Origin: Candidatus Latescibacterota bacterium
Lineage (GTDB): Bacteria; Latescibacterota; UBA2968
Length of the DNA: 64,000 nucleotides
Reading direction: 5' to 3'
NCBI GenBank assembly: GCA_965204745.1
Contig: OZ242010.1
Coordinates: 256,001-320,000 of the forward strand
Shown here: positions 28,641 to 36,768 of the stretch, piece by piece
Layout of the letters: the number at the start of each line of letters is the position of its first letter
How positions within the stretch are numbered: the first letter of the stretch is position 1
The notes under the pieces: generated by a model
What the model saw: the letters and a program-made list of their open reading frames with translations, nothing else
Told to the model about the DNA's origin: nothing
The model's database searches: none
Translations under genes and position numbers: made by a program

Positions 28641-28746
28641 TTGTCAGTTGTCAGTTGTCAGTTGTCAGTTGTCAGTTGTCAGTTGTCAGTTGTCAGTTGT
28701 CAGTTGTCAGTTGTCAGTTGTCAGTTGTCAGTTGTCAGTTGTCAGT
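28641..28746. repeat. Heptamer tandem repeat (TTGTCAG) ~15 copies
   Basis: Direct reading. Confidence 0.97.
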
Positions 28747-29077: not shown

Positions 29078-29179
29078 GACCACCCAACCCCCTTCGCTTT
29101 TCGCCTTTCCCCTCTTGTATCTTGGAAGTAAGGGTTAATTAGGAGTTGCGCCCTCGTATCGAGATAAGCCATCTTGATG

Positions 29180-29312
29180 CCCGGCTCGGGGAAGGCCGGC
29201 CCCTCTTGAAGGCGATGACCTTGTAGGTAAGATAGGCCCCCCGACCGCCGGGTCTATGCCGAAGAGTATCTAAGTCCCTTGAGGCTGCATATACAAGACC
29301 GGTAGACTTGGC
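29180..29312 (+). ncRNA. IS110 bridge RNA (target- and donor-binding loops), copy 1; ends approximate
   Basis: LTG CCCCTCT 29200-06, RTG AGGTAAG 29225-31, LDG AGAGTATCT 29263-71, RDG ATACAAG 29291-97. Confidence 0.85.
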
Positions 29313-29380
29313 GTCAATGGTCGGGATCGAACTCGAGCGCACACCAGACCCCTTACAACCCCTCATCACAGGAGGCCCCC

Positions 29381-30388
29381 ATGTCGAAATCTCAACCCGC
29401 TTTCGCCGGCATTGATGTCAGTGCCCGCACGTTGTCTGTTGCCCTGTCCAGACCCGGACAAGCTGTCATGCAAGCGACCTTTGCCAATGATCCCCAAGCC
29501 CATAAGCGGTTGCTGAAGTGGCTCACCAAGGGCGGGCACATGGTCTCTGTGTGCCTCGAAGCGACCGGGCTTTACAGCTTGGGGGTGGCCTTGGCCTTGC
29601 ATCGGCATCGCCACACAAAGGTCATGGTCGTCAATCCCAAAGCGATGAGCAAGTACGGTCAAGCCCGCATGCAACGAGCCAAGACGGATGCGAAGGATGC
29701 GTTGTTGATCATGGATTATGCCGAGCGCATGCCGTTTGTGCCTTGGCAAGCGCCGAGTGAGCAACGGCTTCAACTGCAAGCCCTCACCAGACGCATTGAC
29801 CAACTCAAGCAGGTGATCATCAGTGAACAGAGCCGCAACCACGCGCAAAGCTACCACATCCTGAGCACACGGCGCATCGCACGCGATATTCAGGTGAATA
29901 TTCGACACCTCAAACGCCGGATTGCATACTTGGAAGACCAAGCCCTCGATCTCGTTTTGCACGATGAGACCCTCAAGCGCGCCTACCAACGCCTCTGCTC
30001 GACGCCTGGCATCGCACAAACGAGCGCCTTGCGGCTCTTGGCCGAGTTGACCCTTTTGCCTGAGGAGATGCAACCGCCCCAGTGGGTCGCACATGCAGGC
30101 CTGGATCCCAAACCCAAACAATCCGGAACCGCCAACCCACAAAGACGCATCTCGAAAACCGGGAATAAGTACCTCCGCCATGCCCTCTATATGCCTGCCT
30201 GGGTGGCCATCAGACACGAAGTCCATGTCAAAGCCTTCTATGACCAACTCATTGCCCGCGGCAAGAAACCTTTGCAGGCTATCGTTGCGGTGATGCGAAA
30301 GTTGCTCCATTCAATCTGGGGCATGTTGCGGCATGACCAAGATTTTGAGGGCGAGAAATTCTATCGAATCGCCCCGCAATCCCCTTGA
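29381..30388 (+). CDS. IS110 recombinase/transposase
   Basis: DEDD (GIDVS, LEAT, KTDAKD) and QSG serine; KISKTGNKYLR-like C-terminal domain. Confidence 0.96.
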   Translation: MSKSQPAFAGIDVSARTLSVALSRPGQAVMQATFANDPQAHKRLLKWLTKGGHMVSVCLEATGLYSLGVALALHRHRHTKVMVVNPKAMSKYGQARMQRAKTDAKDALLIMDYAERMPFVPWQAPSEQRLQLQALTRRIDQLKQVIISEQSRNHAQSYHILSTRRIARDIQVNIRHLKRRIAYLEDQALDLVLHDETLKRAYQRLCSTPGIAQTSALRLLAELTLLPEEMQPPQWVAHAGLDPKPKQSGTANPQRRISKTGNKYLRHALYMPAWVAIRHEVHVKAFYDQLIARGKKPLQAIVAVMRKLLHSIWGMLRHDQDFEGEKFYRIAPQSP

Positions 30389-30402
30389 CCTTTAAGAGAG
30401 TA

Positions 30403-30457
30403 TCTTACCTCTTGCCTCTTACCTCTTACCTCTTGCCTCTTACCTCTCACCTCTCCC
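30403..30457. repeat. Heptamer repeat (TCTTACC/TCTTGCC), IS110 target; overlaps the rfbB stop
   Basis: Direct reading. Confidence 0.85.
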
Positions 30458-31459
30458 GCTGTACTGCCGCTTGTAATATTCCCGATACCCCGCGCTGTTC
30501 CGAATTTTTCGCCACCAGTCTTCGTTGTTCAGATACCATTCCACGGTGAGGCGCAGGGCGTCTTCAAAATTGTACTTGGGCTTCCAACCCAGGGCCGCGA
30601 TTTTGGACGTATTCAGAGAATACCGCATGTCGTGGCCGGGGCGGTCGGTCACATGTTGGATGAGGTCTTGGGGCTTTTCTAGATACGCGAGAATTTTTTG
30701 CGCGACGGACAGGCCATCGGCTTCATTTTCCCCGCCCACATTATAGGCTTGGCCCGGCGTGCCCTCGTGAAGTGCCAGATCAATCGCCGCGCAGTGATCG
30801 GTCACGTACAGGTGATCTCGAACAGCCGTGCCCGCGCCGTACACGGGCAAGGGCATGTGGTCTAGGGCATTGGTGATGTAAATGGGCACGCGCTTTTCGG
30901 GATATTGAAATGGACCGATGTTATTCGCGGATCGCGTGATCACCACGGGCAGGCCGTACGTGATGGCAAATGCCCGCGCCATCATATCGCCGGACGCTTT
31001 TGCCACAGCGTAGGGATTGCGCGGCGCAATCGGGGCTTCTTCTGTCCATGGCTCCTCGCCTTCCGCCAACGCCCCATAGACCTCATCGGTGCTCACTTGC
31101 AAAAACCGCTCAACGCCACACGCACGCGCGGCGGCGAGCAGGGTGTACACCCCCAGCGCGTTGGTTTTCATAAACGCCTCGGCGCCCATAATGCTGCGAT
31201 CCACATGGCTTTCCGCCGCGAAATTCACCACGAGGTCAACCCGCTGCATCACCGCGTTCACCAACTCGGCATCGCAAATATCCCCATGCACAAATTCATA
31301 GCGGGGATCGTCCGCAATATCCAACACGTTGTCCAGATTGCCCGCGTACGTCAACTTGTCCAAATTGATGACGCGATAATCGCGGTACGCCTGGAGCATG
31401 TGCCGCGCAAAATGACTGCCAATAAACCCGGCACCACCGGTAATGAGAATGGTTTTCAT
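30440..31459 (-). CDS. rfbB: dTDP-glucose 4,6-dehydratase
   Basis: GGAGFIG, DKLTYAGN, AAESHVDRS, VSTDEVYG, YAVAK, DRPGHDMRY. Confidence 0.95.
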   Translation of the reverse strand: MKTILITGGAGFIGSHFARHMLQAYRDYRVINLDKLTYAGNLDNVLDIADDPRYEFVHGDICDAELVNAVMQRVDLVVNFAAESHVDRSIMGAEAFMKTNALGVYTLLAAARACGVERFLQVSTDEVYGALAEGEEPWTEEAPIAPRNPYAVAKASGDMMARAFAITYGLPVVITRSANNIGPFQYPEKRVPIYITNALDHMPLPVYGAGTAVRDHLYVTDHCAAIDLALHEGTPGQAYNVGGENEADGLSVAQKILAYLEKPQDLIQHVTDRPGHDMRYSLNTSKIAALGWKPKYNFEDALRLTVEWYLNNEDWWRKIRNSAGYREYYKRQYSGRGER

Positions 31460-31588
31460 GGTGACTCCCCCTAGTTGCCAAAAAGCGATTGTGGAATAAA
31501 ATCAACACGACCTAACTAGCTTCTCTATTTCATAAAACACCTTTTTGTGGTCGGGGTTCAATTTCTTTTTTCTGCCTTGACGTCGTTG

Positions 31589-32560
31589 CTACAAAAACAA
31601 GTGCGCGGTGAGGACGAGGTAAATGGCGTAGAGGGCGAGTAGGACAATGCCTTCGCCGCGGGACAGGTGATATCGCGTCCGCATGATCGCCAGCATGGTG
31701 ACGACGATGATCAGCATTGCGGGAAAGGAAAAGTGGATTACGCGCTCTGGCACAATCAGGGGATTCACCAGGGCAGACGCGCCAGCAATCCAGCAAATAT
31801 TCAAAATATCCGCGCCCAAGATATTGCCCACCATCAACTCGCCGTGGCCCTTGCGCGCAGACGTCACCGCAGTGGCGATTTCCGGCAGGGATGTGCCAAT
31901 GGCGACGACGGTCAGCGCGATCACCGCGTCGCTAATGCCCAAAAACTCGGCGATAGCAGACGCGGAATTGACGATAAAATGGCTCGTCACCAACACCCCG
32001 ACGAGGCCCAAGCAAAAATAGGCCATCAACCCGCCCAAGCTCTTGCCGGCAATGGCCTCCTGAATTTCCTCTAATTCCCCAAAATTCTCCGCGCCTTGCG
32101 AGTTCTTTCTCGTCGCGTAAGCAAACGCGGTATAGGCCACGAAGAGCACCACCAGCACGCCGCCTTCCAATCGCCCCAATGTGCCGTCAAACGCCATCGC
32201 ATACGCGACCACATCTACAATGATCAAAAAAATACCCGTCGTCTTCAACAAATACGGATTGATGCCAATGGCAGCGGGCGCGACCAATGCGCCTAGGCCC
32301 AGCGCGACCCCATCATCGACGATCACGGACCCCACCGCATTGCCCAGCGCGATTTCGGGTTTGCCCTCAAAGGCGGACATCACGGAAACCGCCAATTCGG
32401 GCGACGTCGTCGCCAAACTCATCAGCACGATGCCGATCAGCATCTTGGGCACGTTGAAATATTCGGCGATACCCACCGCGCCGTCGACGAACCAGTTTGC
32501 ACATTTTGCCAACACGGCAAAGCACAAAATCAAAATCCCTACATCAGCCCAAATACCCAC
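31589..32560 (-). CDS. Ca2+/Na+ antiporter (CaCA, YrbG-like)
   Basis: Two alpha repeats, ATTSPE..GNAVGS and GTSLPE..GNILGAD; GTG start with AGGAGG. Confidence 0.9.
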   Translation of the reverse strand: MGIWADVGILILCFAVLAKCANWFVDGAVGIAEYFNVPKMLIGIVLMSLATTSPELAVSVMSAFEGKPEIALGNAVGSVIVDDGVALGLGALVAPAAIGINPYLLKTTGIFLIIVDVVAYAMAFDGTLGRLEGGVLVVLFVAYTAFAYATRKNSQGAENFGELEEIQEAIAGKSLGGLMAYFCLGLVGVLVTSHFIVNSASAIAEFLGISDAVIALTVVAIGTSLPEIATAVTSARKGHGELMVGNILGADILNICWIAGASALVNPLIVPERVIHFSFPAMLIIVVTMLAIMRTRYHLSRGEGIVLLALYAIYLVLTAHLFL

Positions 32561-32695
32561 GATACCTCCTGTGTCGTTGTCAAGCCGCAACTCTGCTCAT
32601 CCACCCTGCCGCCCGTGCGTGCCCGTCCCATCACCGCCCTACCGCAAGCCCTATCCCCAAGTAAGAGGCAAGAAGTAAGATACTCTCTTAAAAGG

Positions 32696-33703
32696 TCAAG
32701 GGGTTTTCGGGGTGATTCGATAGAATTTCTCGCCCTCAAAATCTTGGTCATGCCGCAACATGCCCCAGATCGAATGGAGCAACTTTCGCATCACCGCAAC
32801 GATAGCCTGCAAAGGTTTCTTGCCCCTGGCGATGAGTTTGTCATAAAAGGCTTTGACATGGACTTCGTGCCTGCAGGCCACCCAAGCAGGCATGTAGAGG
32901 GCATGGCGGAGATATTTATTTCCGGTTTTCGAGATGCGTCTTTCCGGGTTGGCCATCCCGGATTGTTTGGGTTTGGGATCCAGGCCTGCATGAGCGACCC
33001 ATTGGGGCGGTTCCATCCCGTCTGGCAAGGAGGCCAGCTCGGCCAAGAGCCGCAAGGCACTCGTTTGGGCGATACCGGGCACCGAGCAGAGGTGCTGGTA
33101 GGCACGCTTTTGAGTCTCGTCCTGCAAAACGAGTTTGAGGGCTTGGTCTTCCAAGTAGGCAATGCGGCGTTTGAGGTGTCGAATATTCACCTGAATATCG
33201 CGTGTGATGAGGCGGGCACGCTTGACGGGGTAGTCCTGCGCGTGGTGCCGGTTCTGTTCTCGGCTGACCTCCTGTTTGAGTTGGTCAATGCGTCTGGTCA
33301 GCGTTTGCAGTTGCAGGACGTGCTCGCTCGGCACTTGCCAAGGCACAAAGGGCATGCGCTCGGCATCATCGAGGATCAACAACGCATCCTTCGCATCTGT
33401 CTTTGCCCGTTGCATGCAGGCTTGAGCGTACTTGCTCATCGCTTTGGGATTGACGACCATGACCTGCGTGCAGCGATGCTGATGCAAGGCCAAGGCCACC
33501 CCCAAGCTATAACGCCCGGTCGCTTCGAGACAGACCGAGACCATGCGCCCGCCCTTGGTGAGCCACTTCAACAGGTGCTTGTGCGCCCGAGGCGCGTTGT
33601 CAAAGGTGGCTTGCATGACCCCTTGTCCGGGTCTGGACAGGGCAACGGACAACGTGTGGGCACTGACATCAATGCCGGCAAAAGCGGGTTGAGTGTTCGA
33701 CAT
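32696..33703 (-). CDS. IS110 recombinase/transposase, diverged paralogue of copy 1
   Basis: 335 aa, same DEDD and QSG motifs. Confidence 0.96.
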   Translation of the reverse strand: MSNTQPAFAGIDVSAHTLSVALSRPGQGVMQATFDNAPRAHKHLLKWLTKGGRMVSVCLEATGRYSLGVALALHQHRCTQVMVVNPKAMSKYAQACMQRAKTDAKDALLILDDAERMPFVPWQVPSEHVLQLQTLTRRIDQLKQEVSREQNRHHAQDYPVKRARLITRDIQVNIRHLKRRIAYLEDQALKLVLQDETQKRAYQHLCSVPGIAQTSALRLLAELASLPDGMEPPQWVAHAGLDPKPKQSGMANPERRISKTGNKYLRHALYMPAWVACRHEVHVKAFYDKLIARGKKPLQAIVAVMRKLLHSIWGMLRHDQDFEGEKFYRITPKTP

Positions 33704-33771
33704 CGGGGCCTCCTGTGATGAGGGGTGGGGAAGGGGTCTGGTGTGCGCTCGGGTTCGCGTCCCGACTGTTT

Positions 33772-33904
33772 GCCCAGTCTACCGGTCTTGTATATGCAGC
33801 CTCAATGGACTTAGATACTCTTCGGTATCAACTCGGCGGTCGGGGGGCCTATCTTACTTACAAGGTCATAGCCTTCAAGAGGCGCCGGCCTTCCCCGAGC
33901 AGGG
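33772..33904 (-). ncRNA. IS110 bridge RNA, copy 2; ends approximate
   Basis: LTG CGCCTCT 33884-78, RTG AAGTAAG 33859-53, LDG AGAGTATCT 33821-13, RDG ATACAAG 33793-87. Confidence 0.85.
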
Positions 33905-34048
33905 CATCAAGATGGCGTGTCTCGATGCGAGGGCGCAACACCTAAATTAACCCTTTCTGACAACATACAAGAGGCGAGACCGGCCCACAACCCTACCTCC
34001 GCTTCATCGTTCCCCTGCGCTGTGTCCTCTGCACGCCCTGCCGCCATA

Positions 34049-34455
34049 GCCCTATCCCCCCGGCCCCGTTATTCGCTTCGCTCATTGTAGGCTACGCCTG
34101 TGCCTACAAGGAAAGGGGGAGCGCATGGCTTTCTTAAAGGTTTGTATCCCTGGCTGTTCTGATGGCTTTGAGCGAATGGATCATGCCATGAACCCCAAAA
34201 ACCTCTCATGCAAATCCCTCGCAAAACCTCTCGCTATTCCCCCCTTCCTCGCAAGACCTATCCCCCCGGCCCCCTTTCCTACAAGGAAAGGGGGAGCGCA
34301 TGGCTTTCTTAAAGGTTTGTATCCCTGGCTGTTCTGATGGCTTTGAGCGAATGGATCATGCCATGAACCCCAAAAACCTCTCATGCAAATCCCTCGCAAA
34401 ACCTCTCGCTATTCCCCCCTTCCTCGCAGGAAGGGGGGCTAGGGGGGTAGGTCCC
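34049..34455 (+). repeat. Tandem pair of ~200-bp palindromic MITE-like repeats (copies C and D)
   Basis: Interior 34103-34252 repeated at 34278-34427; copy D has ends GACCTATCCCCCCGGCCCCC / GGGGGCTAGGGGGGTAGGTC. Confidence 0.9.
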
Positions 34456-34464
34456 AATTCCGCC

Positions 34465-36768
34465 CTATTCATTCACAATTCGCGCGACCCAGATGCTGGC
34501 TTCGTATAAAACGACGAGGGGCAGGGCCATGAGAAGTTGGGACAGGGGATCGGGGGGGGTCAAAATGGCGGCGAGGACGAAGCCGATCAAAATCGCGTAC
34601 CGCCGTCCGGTTCGCATGCGGGAACTGGTGGCAATGCCCACCTTTGCCAAGAAGAATGTCACCACCGGCAATTCGAACACCAGCCCAAAAACCACGATGA
34701 GGCGCAACACGAAGCCGATGTACATGCCGATGTCGAATTGCGGCATCACGGCCGTATCAACCGTCATGCCCACGAAAAACGCGATGGCCAACGGGATGAC
34801 CAGCCAGTACGCCAAAACCGCACCCACGGCAAAACAAGCGGTGGAAGACGCGATCACAAAGGTGATGAACCGCCGCTCGCCTGCAAACAGGCCGGGGGAG
34901 ACGAAGATCCAGATTTGGTACATCAAAAAGGGCAGGGCGATAATCGCGCCGCCCACCAGCACGATTTCCAACTTGACCATGAACATGCCCATGGGCTTGA
35001 GGGTTTGCAACACGAGCGCGTTTTCCTCGGTTCGCGCCGGGTGGATCAGCAAGGCTAAGATGTCATTGACGAAAATCCCGCACGCGACCGCGCCTGCGAT
35101 AATCGCGCTCAACCCCTTGAGAATGCGCCACCGCAGTTCCTCCAAGTGATCGAGAAAGGGCATGGGCTTGCCGTCCTCTGGCAATTCCCGATCCGGCGGC
35201 GCTAGCGCGGGCACCGTGCCCTTGGGCCGCGCGCGCTCTTCGGCGGCTTTGTCGCGGCGGCGGATGAACGCGAGTGCCAAGCCCATCAGCGCGATCAGGC
35301 CGCACCCTTGTGCGAACAAATCCCCGAACCGCACATAGAGCGTCAGATCCTTGCGCGGCGCGATGGCGCGTTCTAAAACCGCCGTGTGAAACAGCCCGGT
35401 GTTTTGCCATTGCCGCCCGTGCGGATCGACGAATAAGGACATCCCGGTATTGGCACAGCGCACCACCCAACGCCGGTTTTCAATGGCCCTGAAGGTCGCT
35501 ATCGCCGCGTGTTGATACGGCGCGGAGGTGCGCTTGTACCACCCGTCATTGGTAATCACCACCAAGAACTCCGCGCCGTGCATCACCAGTTCTCGGGCGA
35601 GCCAAGGGAACGCGGAATCAAAGCAAATTACGCCGGAGAACCTTCCCCCCGGCACTGTGAAAACCGTGCGGTCAACCCCGCCTTCAAAATCCCCGCTGAC
35701 GTATCCCCCGCCGCTCCATCGAATATCGCGCAAGAACCCGAGCACCTCGGGAAATGGCGCGCGCTCTCCAAACGGCACGACCTTCACCTTGTCGTAATGC
35801 GGCAACTCGCCCCCACCCGGTTTGAACAAAAAGGACGAATTGTAATGCCGGTCTCGCGTTGCGGCTTCGTACCGGTTGGCCCCTGTGTACAGATAAATCC
35901 CCAGGGAATCGACCAATGCCTGCACGCGCGCTTGGTACGTAGCGTCGTGCCAGGGCCGATCGCTTTGCAAGTACGCGGGCACCGCGGCCTCTGACCACAC
36001 GATCAACCGCGCCCCTGTTTTTGCCGCGTCGATGGTCAGGGGTTTGAGCGCGTCAAAATTGTGGTCGAATCCCCAGTGCGATTTCTCGACCGGCGAGACA
36101 TTTTGTTGTACGATAGCGACGTTGAGATCGCCTTCTGCGAGGGGTTCTGATGCGCGCCACAAGCCGAATCCCAAAGGCGCTGCGAATGCCGAGACGAGCA
36201 CCCCGATCATGGGGCCGCGCCGCGCATTTCGGATGATCTCGTACGCGATGAGATTGACCACCACCACCCAAAACGACACGCCATAGACGCCCGTGACTTC
36301 GGCAATTTGGATCAGCGGCAAATAATCCACTTGGGAATGCCCGAGCACCATCCACGGAAACCCCATATCGCCGAGGGTGTTGAAATACTCAAACCCCACC
36401 CACGCGAAGGGCGTTAGCCACAGCCCCAGCCAGCCATAGCGCGCCCACATAGCGGACCACAAATAGACGAACAACCCCCTAAAAACCGCCATGTAAAAAA
36501 TGGCCCCGGCCATCCCCGGCGGCGTGATCCACGCGATCCAATAGATGGTCGCGCTGTAAAAGATGATGCCCTGCAAAAACCCCGCGCCAAATGCCACGCG
36601 GCCGCGCAGGTTCTCGGCAACCGGAATGAGGGGCAACAAACTGATGCACGCCAGAAACCCGAGTGGCAAGGGCGGAAATGCCGCGGCCATCAGCACGCCG
36701 GATAAGATGGGATAGCCGAGGGCCAACCTCCAACGCGATGTTTTGTCCTGTTTTGTTTTGTCTGCCAT
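34465..36768 (-). CDS. Fusion of apolipoprotein N-acyltransferase (Lnt) and Tat translocase subunit TatC
   Basis: Lnt: GFPW, WSEAA, YDK..VPFGE, ICFD, TNDGW, FRAIENRR, NTG.S; TatC from 35163: MPFLDHLEELR, YQIWIFVSPGL, FELP, LTPPD, LYE; one uninterrupted ORF. Confidence 0.9.
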   Translation of the reverse strand: MADKTKQDKTSRWRLALGYPILSGVLMAAAFPPLPLGFLACISLLPLIPVAENLRGRVAFGAGFLQGIIFYSATIYWIAWITPPGMAGAIFYMAVFRGLFVYLWSAMWARYGWLGLWLTPFAWVGFEYFNTLGDMGFPWMVLGHSQVDYLPLIQIAEVTGVYGVSFWVVVVNLIAYEIIRNARRGPMIGVLVSAFAAPLGFGLWRASEPLAEGDLNVAIVQQNVSPVEKSHWGFDHNFDALKPLTIDAAKTGARLIVWSEAAVPAYLQSDRPWHDATYQARVQALVDSLGIYLYTGANRYEAATRDRHYNSSFLFKPGGGELPHYDKVKVVPFGERAPFPEVLGFLRDIRWSGGGYVSGDFEGGVDRTVFTVPGGRFSGVICFDSAFPWLARELVMHGAEFLVVITNDGWYKRTSAPYQHAAIATFRAIENRRWVVRCANTGMSLFVDPHGRQWQNTGLFHTAVLERAIAPRKDLTLYVRFGDLFAQGCGLIALMGLALAFIRRRDKAAEERARPKGTVPALAPPDRELPEDGKPMPFLDHLEELRWRILKGLSAIIAGAVACGIFVNDILALLIHPARTEENALVLQTLKPMGMFMVKLEIVLVGGAIIALPFLMYQIWIFVSPGLFAGERRFITFVIASSTACFAVGAVLAYWLVIPLAIAFFVGMTVDTAVMPQFDIGMYIGFVLRLIVVFGLVFELPVVTFFLAKVGIATSSRMRTGRRYAILIGFVLAAILTPPDPLSQLLMALPLVVLYEASIWVARIVNE

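Follow-up and report, generated by a model that had tools for sequence, protein, structure and literature searches.

Natural guide variation in a candidate bridge-RNA-guided IS110-group insertion sequence from Latescibacterota

Can the RNA guides of a mobile element change in nature, and do the sites occupied by its copies change with them? The question is raised by a 64,000-nucleotide stretch of a Candidatus Latescibacterota bacterium genome (GenBank assembly GCA_965204745.1, contig OZ242010.1, positions 256,001 to 320,000; this whole stretch is termed the window), which contains an inverted pair of IS110-group insertion sequences (ISs), copy 1 on the plus strand and copy 2 on the minus strand. 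An original prediction, made from the letters of the window, held that the two copies display natural retargeting, with guides that co-vary with their insertion sites. We find that this covariation holds genome-wide, across 52 copies, and in related genomes. Judged from the sequences, both copies are best regarded, with a probability of about 90%, as one lineage-specific IS110-group IS that moves by bridge-RNA-guided recombination.

Two copies whose target guides and flanks differ in step

The two elements and their ends lie at the following window positions.

29116..30405, plus strand: copy 1, IS110-group element of 1290 bp counting one CT core; guide class A, subgroup A2
29114-29115, plus strand: left CT core of copy 1, after left target half CCCCT at 29109-29113; the left flank ends in TTCCCCT
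29116..29380, plus strand: 265-nt left end of copy 1, from which the predicted bridge RNA would be made (from left-end alignment and consensus structure)
29381..30388, plus strand: recombinase gene of copy 1, 335 amino acids (aa), with D12, E60, D103, D106 and S248
30404-30405, plus strand: right CT core of copy 1, after the right terminus ...AGAGAGTAT and before right target half TACCT at 30406-30410
32678..33969, minus strand: copy 2, IS110-group element of 1292 bp counting one CT core; guide class B
33976-33972, minus strand: left target half CGCCT of copy 2, followed by CT core 33971-33970; the flank ends in CTCGCCT
32696..33703, minus strand: recombinase gene of copy 2, 335 aa, sharing 283 of 335 residues with copy 1
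32679-32678, minus strand: right CT core of copy 2, followed by right target half TACTT at 32677-32673

Copy 1 starts with TGTAT at 29116 and is identical to seven other copies in the genome; its right end comprises the 17 nt after the stop codon (30389-30405), and a 7-bp tandem array begins after its right target half. Copy 2, about 88% identical to copy 1, starts with TGTATG at 33969 and terminates in AGAGTAT, with its right target half located in a GC-rich repeat family, within a short run of heptamers. A repeat finder recovers the pair as inverted arms at 29349-30393 and 32691-33735 that are 88% complementary, with further arms over the element ends. The span first given for the pair, 29107-33978, takes in a few flank bases at either side. 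In each copy the 265-nt left end holds two stem/internal-loop modules, the first carrying a left and a right target guide (LTG and RTG), the second a left and a right donor guide (LDG and RDG).

29200-29206, plus strand: copy 1 LTG, CCCCUCU, equal to the top strand of left target plus core
29225-29231, plus strand: copy 1 RTG, AGGUAAG, reverse complement of core plus right target (CTTACCT)
29263-29271, plus strand: copy 1 LDG, AGAGTATCT (as RNA AGAGUAUCU), equal to right-end terminus plus core
29291-29297, plus strand: copy 1 RDG, AUACAAG, reverse complement of core plus left-end start (CTTGTAT)
33884-33878, minus strand: copy 2 LTG, CGCCUCU
33859-33853, minus strand: copy 2 RTG, AAGUAAG
33821-33813, minus strand: copy 2 LDG, AGAGUAUCU
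33793-33787, minus strand: copy 2 RDG, AUACAAG

All four guides, described at the outset as readable in both copies, were located in each, and their coordinates were checked by script. As predicted, the donor guides are the same in both copies and equal the right-end terminus and the left-end start, while the target guides differ at two bases, C against G in the LTG and G against A in the RTG. The flanks change in step, CCCCT against CGCCT on the left and TACCT against TACTT on the right. The extent of pairing also proved to be as first described: the RTG matches at 7 of 7 positions in both copies and the LTG side at 7 of 9, the two bases (GG) 5' of the 7-nt LTG mismatching the flank in each copy. 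Guide polarity in both copies agrees with that described for IS110 RNAs, in which the 5' side of a loop reads the bottom strand and the 3' side the top strand (PMC11208160; this and the other papers are cited from the parts of their text available here). The donor AGAGTAT-CT-TGTAT had been said to lie one base from the IS621 donor, and the IS621 string used for that comparison is indeed present in a donor DNA (dDNA) oligonucleotide in the available text of PMC13396178.

Both recombinases had been thought intact, and both open reading frames (ORFs) are complete at 335 aa. The two proteins contain the Pfam domains DEDD_Tnp_IS110 (PF01548; E = 4.6e-23 for copy 1 and 1.4e-24 for copy 2) and Transposase_20 (PF02371; E = 6.6e-20 and 3.1e-19), and they score 211.9 and 209.6 bits against the NCBIfam model NF033542, 'IS110 family RNA-guided transposase', which has a cut-off of 140. 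The best solved relatives found in the PDB by phmmer, aligned over nearly their full length, are ISCro4 (E = 7.9e-41) and IS621 (E = 1.9e-36). In an alignment to chain 8wt6_A, whose numbering is shifted by +2, residues D12, E60, D103, D106 and S248 fall on D11, E60, D102, D105 and S241 of IS621, which PMC11208158 lists as essential. The four acidic residues are kept in all 52 full-length copies of the genome, S248 in 51 of 52, and the ORF is intact in 51 of 52. Each element further combines a long non-coding left end upstream of the gene with a short right end, an arrangement used to recognize the IS110 group (PMC11208160, PMC11187229). The sequences thus support the assignment of both as IS110-group bridge-RNA insertion sequences.

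Agreement between guides and flanks across the genome

The genome consists of one contig of 5.48 Mb, in which 52 full-length copies were analysed. Their target guides (LTG/RTG) fall into four classes: A, CCCCTCT/AGGTAAG, with 45 copies; B, CGCCTCT/AAGTAAG, with 4; B', TGCCTCT/AAGTAAG, with 2; and C, TCCCTCT/AGGTGAG, with 1. The class C guides predict TCCCT-CT-CACCT, which is the site actually occupied and constitutes a third independent compensating change. Each of the 52 copies has CT at its left and right junctions. In 51 of 52 the LDG is identical to the final 9 nt of the element, and in 51 of 52 the reverse complement of the RDG corresponds to the core followed by the element's first 5 nt.

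Over the 12 target positions, guides and flanks show no mismatch in 23 copies, one in 21, two in 5 and three in 3. The total of 40 mismatches compares with 60.3 +/- 2.8 when flanks are shuffled among copies, and none of 100,000 shuffles was as low; per-position Fisher tests gave p = 0.0016, 0.0009, 0.077 and 0.00027. The original prediction had itself raised the possibility that guides of other copies do not match their flanks. With rG·dT and rU·dG wobble allowed, 43 of 52 fit at 12 of 12 positions, two have one mismatch, four have two and three have three; the sites of those three worst exceptions agree with the guides of a different class present in the genome.

Both halves of the target appear to matter, as judged from which sites are taken. 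For class A, the site CCCCTCT followed by TACCT is occupied 20 times and free 5 times, and the wobble site CCCCTCT followed by TGCCT is occupied 17 times and free 65 times; where CCCCTCT is followed by CCCCT, TGCGT or TACGT, none is occupied and 45, 38 and 18 are free. On the other side, before CTT[AG]CCT, the left half CCCCT is occupied 37 times and free 70 times, while TGCCT is occupied 0 times and free 289 times. This pattern indicates that both target halves are read. The 771 free sites in the occupancy Fisher test include 47 guide segments inside IS copies, which leaves the result unaffected.

The sites themselves have a characteristic form. The 14-bp site (7 + CT + 5) corresponds to two neighbouring repeats of a tandem array with a 7-bp unit (CT followed by 5 nt), or in some cases to a short array inside the GC-rich repeat. 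The genome contains 291 period-7 tracts of a few unit families, and different guide classes use different unit pairs. Since the target spans two array units, a single-base change in a guide shifts the element to a different unit pair. Flanks with at least 15 of 21 lag-7 matches are found at 30 of 52 copies as against 0.45% of random positions, a clustering that could also be explained if the recombinase or the DNA structure of the 7-bp arrays picked the site and the match to the loop were incidental, for example with a left end derived from an array. Such a role for the DNA has a precedent in ISPpu10, for which the available text of a preprint (10.64898/2026.03.19.712850) describes a target-encoded structure that adds specificity. 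Within arrays, however, only unit pairs that fit the guides are used (0 of 45 for CCCCTCT+CCCCT, 0 of 289 for TGCCT+CTT[AG]CCT), the minority guide classes occupy unit pairs of their own, and the elements of one related genome target non-array sites that fit their different guides. We therefore consider site choice by the recombinase or by array structure very unlikely.

Arrays are also present next to the two copies. To the left of copy 1 lie a (TTGTCAG)n 7-bp array at approximately 28641-28746 and a mixed GTAAGAC/GGGAGAC array that reaches to approximately 29090 and represents the reverse complement of the CT+5 target units. The GC-rich repeat family (motif ...GGGGATAGGGCTTGCGG...) is found on both sides of copy 2, at 34036-34431 and 32600-32677, and contains a pair of 154-nt direct repeats (34103-34256 and 34278-34431; 99% alike). 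An unoccupied class B target is present in many other copies of this family.

Class B copies lie in the GC-rich repeat family, and this location raises the question whether the 'targets' might be part of a longer element, or the IS and its flanks might have been copied together by segmental duplication, so that the agreement was inherited. All five B-lineage copies (four B, one B') sit in the same repeat family, and their right flanks are alike over more than 25 nt. Against co-copying, their flanks are full of substitutions and indels and far more diverged than the IS copies, three of which differ by at most 1.24%, which argues for independent insertions. The repeat also occurs without an IS, for example at genome positions 2082406-2082500 and 3459654-3459757, and there the left and right flanks abut exactly around a single CT (gap 0); the ends of the element are thus fixed, with no target duplication. 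The class A copies, 45 in number, share no related sequence outside the array units, and the dependence of occupancy on both half-sites speaks against segmental duplication as well. An inherited agreement is accordingly extremely improbable, and insertion guided by the RNA loops remains the explanation that we prefer.

A separate question is whether copy 2 belongs to a lineage that still moves. The B lineage has only five full-length copies, up to about 5% apart, and 25 cognate class B 12-mer sites are still free, as might be expected if the family were real, the copy 2 lineage were no longer mobile and the covariation in the window were a fossil record. Yet copy 2 retains an uninterrupted ORF and every catalytic residue, its guides match its flanks at 12 of 12 positions, and the spread among the three closest B-lineage copies resembles that inside the large A1 group. 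Loss of mobility in this lineage is unlikely on balance, if a good deal more credible than the two alternatives above. For class A, all 8 A2 copies (copy 1 included) are identical and 29 of 37 A1 copies equal the A1 consensus, which supports recent movement. An orthologous empty site for copy 1 was not readable among 21 genomes of the genus (its own included), queried with the gene pair that separates the two copies, because gene order left of the dehydratase gene is not conserved.

Covariation extends to relatives, the closest of which are metagenome-assembled Latescibacterota chromosomes. One of these, with 7 loci, has loops TCCYCCT and AGAAAAG and sites of the form ..CC-CT-TTTCT. In a second, with 18 loci, the LTG-side loop is CTCGCCTCT, which matches at 9 of 9 positions at three sites, and the RTG side fits the core plus 3 nt. 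Across the two chromosomes, flanks show 1.6-2.9 mismatches with the guides of their own genome as against 4.2-8.0 with foreign guides. Among more distant elements, the LTG fits its own flank at 9 of 9 positions at one locus (L055) and the RTG at 7 of 7 (L058) and 6 of 7 (L057). The family is patchy, being found at E <= 1e-30 in 4 of 41 genomes searched, its own included.

The exceptions are informative with respect to further guide classes. Truncated copies reveal class D, CCCCTCT/ACGGGAG, and class E, approximately TCCCCCT/CAGGAAG, the latter old, degenerate and located in another repeat family. Two A1 copies (genome positions 1927357 and 5150702) occupy CCCCT-CT-CCCGT, which is a class D site, and are otherwise A1, one with a single substitution and the other with a 5-nt deletion relative to the consensus. 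The copy at 602776 is of B' type over its first approximately 120 nt and of C/A2 type over the remainder, and occupies a class C site. These three-mismatch copies could reflect either gene conversion of the target-binding module (or of the whole element) after insertion or guidance in trans. Insertion by a half-site only was rejected as the main cause for the two CCCGT copies, because commoner non-cognate units are occupied in 0 of 45, 0 of 38 and 0 of 18 cases as against 2 of 10 for CCCGT, and because a guide for CCCGT also exists in the genome. Four further class A copies have the left half TACCT, with a perfect right half and mismatches at the two distal left-target positions.

Several further copies and joints were noted alongside. 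A mini element of about 190 bp (G000:C1:2972653-2972844), which may be a non-autonomous derivative, consists of a left end with a complete class D target-binding module and the donor loop as far as the RDG, joined to the terminal 7 nt of a right end; its flanks fit its own guides at 11 of 12 positions. At G000:C1:1121577-1124187, full-length A1 and A2 copies stand head to tail with one 7-nt unit, TACCTCT, between them, the second copy having inserted into the array unit adjoining the first. Truncated copies at 921764, 1263479, 1433010, 2089406 and 4373186 are older (87-89% identity), carry a further guide class and all lie at ...TTCCCC-CT in another repeat (...CTCGCCA TTCCCCCT). A contig from a sponge metagenome (run X2) joins 29244 to 30383, skipping 1138 bases inside copy 1, and could reflect an internal deletion in a copy from another population, or else a chimera. 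A second X2 joint, 32676 to 33969, skips 1292 bases, the length of copy 2; as an empty site it was given no weight, since its shorter side comprises 25 letters and its flanks belong to a repeat family, so that it may be a paralogous empty repeat.

Taken together, these data allow a broader and decidedly tentative reading, in which the genome holds a natural retargeting experiment performed on one recombinase/donor scaffold. At least six target-loop specificities (four in full-length copies, two in truncated classes) would be combined with identical donor ends, and the arrays would act as a combinatorial landing pad that drives guide diversification: as the 14-bp site is two array units, a one-base guide change would find ready-made cognate sites. 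Five or six of the seven minority-class copies lie on their own sites despite an approximately 7:1 excess of class A, which would point to cis-preference in vivo, each circle as a rule being inserted by the RNA that it encodes, and the three-mismatch copies (two A1 copies that fit class D, one B' chimera that fits class C) would record rare trans guidance or gene conversion.

The predicted left-end RNA and a proposed route of movement

The original prediction had proposed folding of the left ends, with guides in internal loops. We aligned 18 left ends, comprising 8 from the same genome, 7 from the two related chromosomes and 3 more distant ones, which represent 6 lineages. In the RNAalifold consensus the guides fall in two internal loops, and these loops lie between helices kept by compensatory changes. 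The tested structure of 32 pairs, with no guide-guide pairs included, is paired in 95.6% of cells and has 13 pairs with compensatory changes on both sides. None of 500 shuffles reaches four of the five structure measures and 2 of 500 reach the remaining one, further pair types; in slid controls, with partners moved by 1-3 columns, pairing falls to 30-54%.

29187..29243, plus strand: target-binding module; outer stem 29187-29197 with 29235-29243, inner stem 29209-29212 with 29219-29222
29247..29312, plus strand: donor-binding module; outer stems 29247-29261 with 29300-29312, inner stem 29273-29276 with 29283-29286
29232-29233, plus strand: candidate handshake guide AU directly after the RTG, positioned by analogy with the available text of PMC11208158
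30385..30390, plus strand: TTGACC, candidate -35 of a junction promoter, read from the sequence by analogy with IS621
29118..29123, plus strand: TATCTT, candidate -10, a promoter that would form only at the circle junction of right end (RE) and left end (LE)

The target-module helices (helices 2 and 3) are paired in 98% and 100% of cells, and the donor-module helices (4 and 5) have compensatory changes in 10 of 16 pairs. Inspection by eye, over few independent lineages, further suggests that in every lineage the AU that follows the RTG is the complement of donor positions 7 and 6. Read in the same way, the base that follows the RDG is A in this genome and in L055, which have T at target position 7. 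It is G with a C at position 7 in one related chromosome, in L057 and, if position 7 is predicted from the LTG, in L058; in the other related chromosome a G faces a T.

By homology and anatomy, the mechanism is most likely that of IS621. The element would excise to a circle, and the joined ends would rebuild a promoter that drives the bridge RNA and the recombinase, as in the model given for the IS621 circle junction (PMC11208158); here the joined ends would give TTGACC, a 17-nt spacer and TATCTT. The 265-nt left end would yield an RNA with two stem/internal-loop modules. The first loop would hold the target, its guides together specifying a 12-bp site, and the second would likewise read AGAGTAT-CT-TGTAT, the junction formed by the two ends of the element. 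The 335-aa recombinase, acting as a tetramer with its RuvC-like DEDD site and Tnp-domain serine, would then swap strands at the CT core through a phosphoserine intermediate, and the circle would enter without target duplication. Transcription from the junction promoter, circle formation and catalysis are steps that we infer from the likeness to IS621. A sigma-70 scan of the linear element gave no site in the left end and a single one inside the coding region.

A number of observations weigh against this reading and temper its strength. The description of the two copies as programmable orthologues amounts to a well-founded candidate status, and the promoter across the junction is a candidate based on the letters and on analogy. 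The 14-nt circle-junction motif has 0 occurrences in the assembly, and the contigs of four sequencing runs compared with the stretch are of a kind that cannot reveal rare circles. Among 24 sequencing runs listed, none that contains the stretch is on record as RNA, so that the runs are silent on expression. Folds of single sequences do not stand out clearly from those of shuffled ones (z = -0.79 and -2.49), which is why the alignment was relied on instead, and the RNAalifold consensus includes some pairing between the LTG and the RTG. A search of Rfam (release 15) found no matching family, its two microRNA matches being at chance level and in tandem repeats outside the elements. At the target, only 7 of 9 bases of the LTG-side loop ever match the flank across the 52 copies, and one or more non-wobble mismatches remain in 9 of 52. 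Lastly, the genome resembles a metagenome-assembled chromosome, the closest named relatives being metagenome-assembled genomes, and exact identity between IS copies could therefore partly owe to assembly or polishing.

Neighbourhood, novelty and comparison with known systems

Between the two copies (30440-32590) lie adjacent genes for an NAD-dependent sugar dehydratase and a Na/Ca exchanger. The two genes are 1.3-1.9 Mb apart in the two closest IS-bearing relatives (loci L065-L067), and in one relative a match to window positions 34411-34458 occurs approximately 850 nt past the dehydratase gene. This suggests rearrangement at the locus, possibly with involvement of the IS copies. Beyond copy 2, a 767-aa ORF at 34465-36768 on the minus strand fuses LNT_N and CN_hydrolase domains (apolipoprotein N-acyltransferase) to a complete TatC domain, an unusual fusion if real rather than a frameshift or an assembly join.

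Natural covariation of guides with targets and natural re-direction are reportedly in print already with Durrant (2024) and Siddiquee (2024). In the available text of PMC11208160, guide-target covariation over thousands of natural elements is how bridge RNAs were found, and 16 natural guide variants are shown with their target motifs; 'natural re-direction' or 'natural re-programming' among relatives is stated in PMC11187229. The targeting of repeated sequences is likewise classical for the IS110 family (PMC11208160). We considered wobble tolerance as a novelty and rejected it, as it is in print for ISPpu10 and IS621 (preprint 10.64898/2026.03.19.712850). The mechanism described in 2024 is unchanged, and the elements are no new kind of system; a standard annotation pipeline would already call the protein an IS110 family RNA-guided transposase. 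What is new is the Latescibacterota lineage, the coexistence of guide classes on one donor scaffold within a genome, the 7+7-nt guide layout and the 7-bp arrays as habitat. Among the papers listed by a search for earlier accounts of this family or of targeting to heptamer arrays, none mentions Latescibacteria or a heptanucleotide; supplementary orthologue tables might list the lineage.

The elements add a recently active bridge-recombinase lineage from an uncultured phylum, Latescibacterota. Natural guide variants 1-3 bases apart, with known cognate sites, provide ready matched and swapped pairs for specificity tests, and 7+7-nt guides become available for comparison with the 9+4 of IS621. The copies also point to a route of diversification inside one genome, through point changes in the loop and exchange of the loop module, and indicate that short tandem arrays can be a habitat for such elements.

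Among known systems, IS621 of Escherichia coli offers the fullest comparison. It shares the two protein domains, the aligned catalytic residues, the CT core, a donor that differs at 1 of 14 bases and a non-coding RNA in the left end upstream of the gene; as here, the first internal loop reads the target and the second the donor, with the same strand polarity (PMC11208160), and a candidate -35/-10 pair, read from sequence in the present case, would likewise be split over the RE-LE junction. It differs in being a distant protein relative (phmmer E = 1.9e-36), in having an LTG of 9 nt and an RTG of 4 nt according to the available text where the present guides are effectively 7 and 7, and in targeting repetitive extragenic palindromic (REP) sequences rather than units of 7-bp tandem arrays. 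Unlike IS621, the element described here has 52 full-length copies and at least 4 guide classes in one genome. The best solved relative, ISCro4 of the IS622 type (PDB 9t56), aligns over residues 7-332 with the same domain order; it comes from a different host phylum and was compared by protein only.

ISPpu10 and ISPpu9 of Pseudomonas putida are likewise multi-copy IS110 elements that land in repeated intergenic sequence (PMC12288879), with G·U/G·T wobble tolerated at guide-target positions (preprint 10.64898/2026.03.19.712850). They have one target, a REP with a stem-loop, whereas several guide classes and array units are found here. ISEc11 and ISXne4, seekRNA elements of the IS1111 group, resemble the present copies in their 'natural re-direction' by a changed target-detection region (PMC11187229). 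That group, which has long subterminal inverted repeats, carries its RNA on the downstream side of the gene, with the order of the two target-matching regions reversed; the present elements, with only 17 nt from stop codon to element end, lack such a long downstream non-coding region. The re-direction of ISEc11 and ISXne4 was moreover seen between species, whereas the guide variants described here coexist within one genome.

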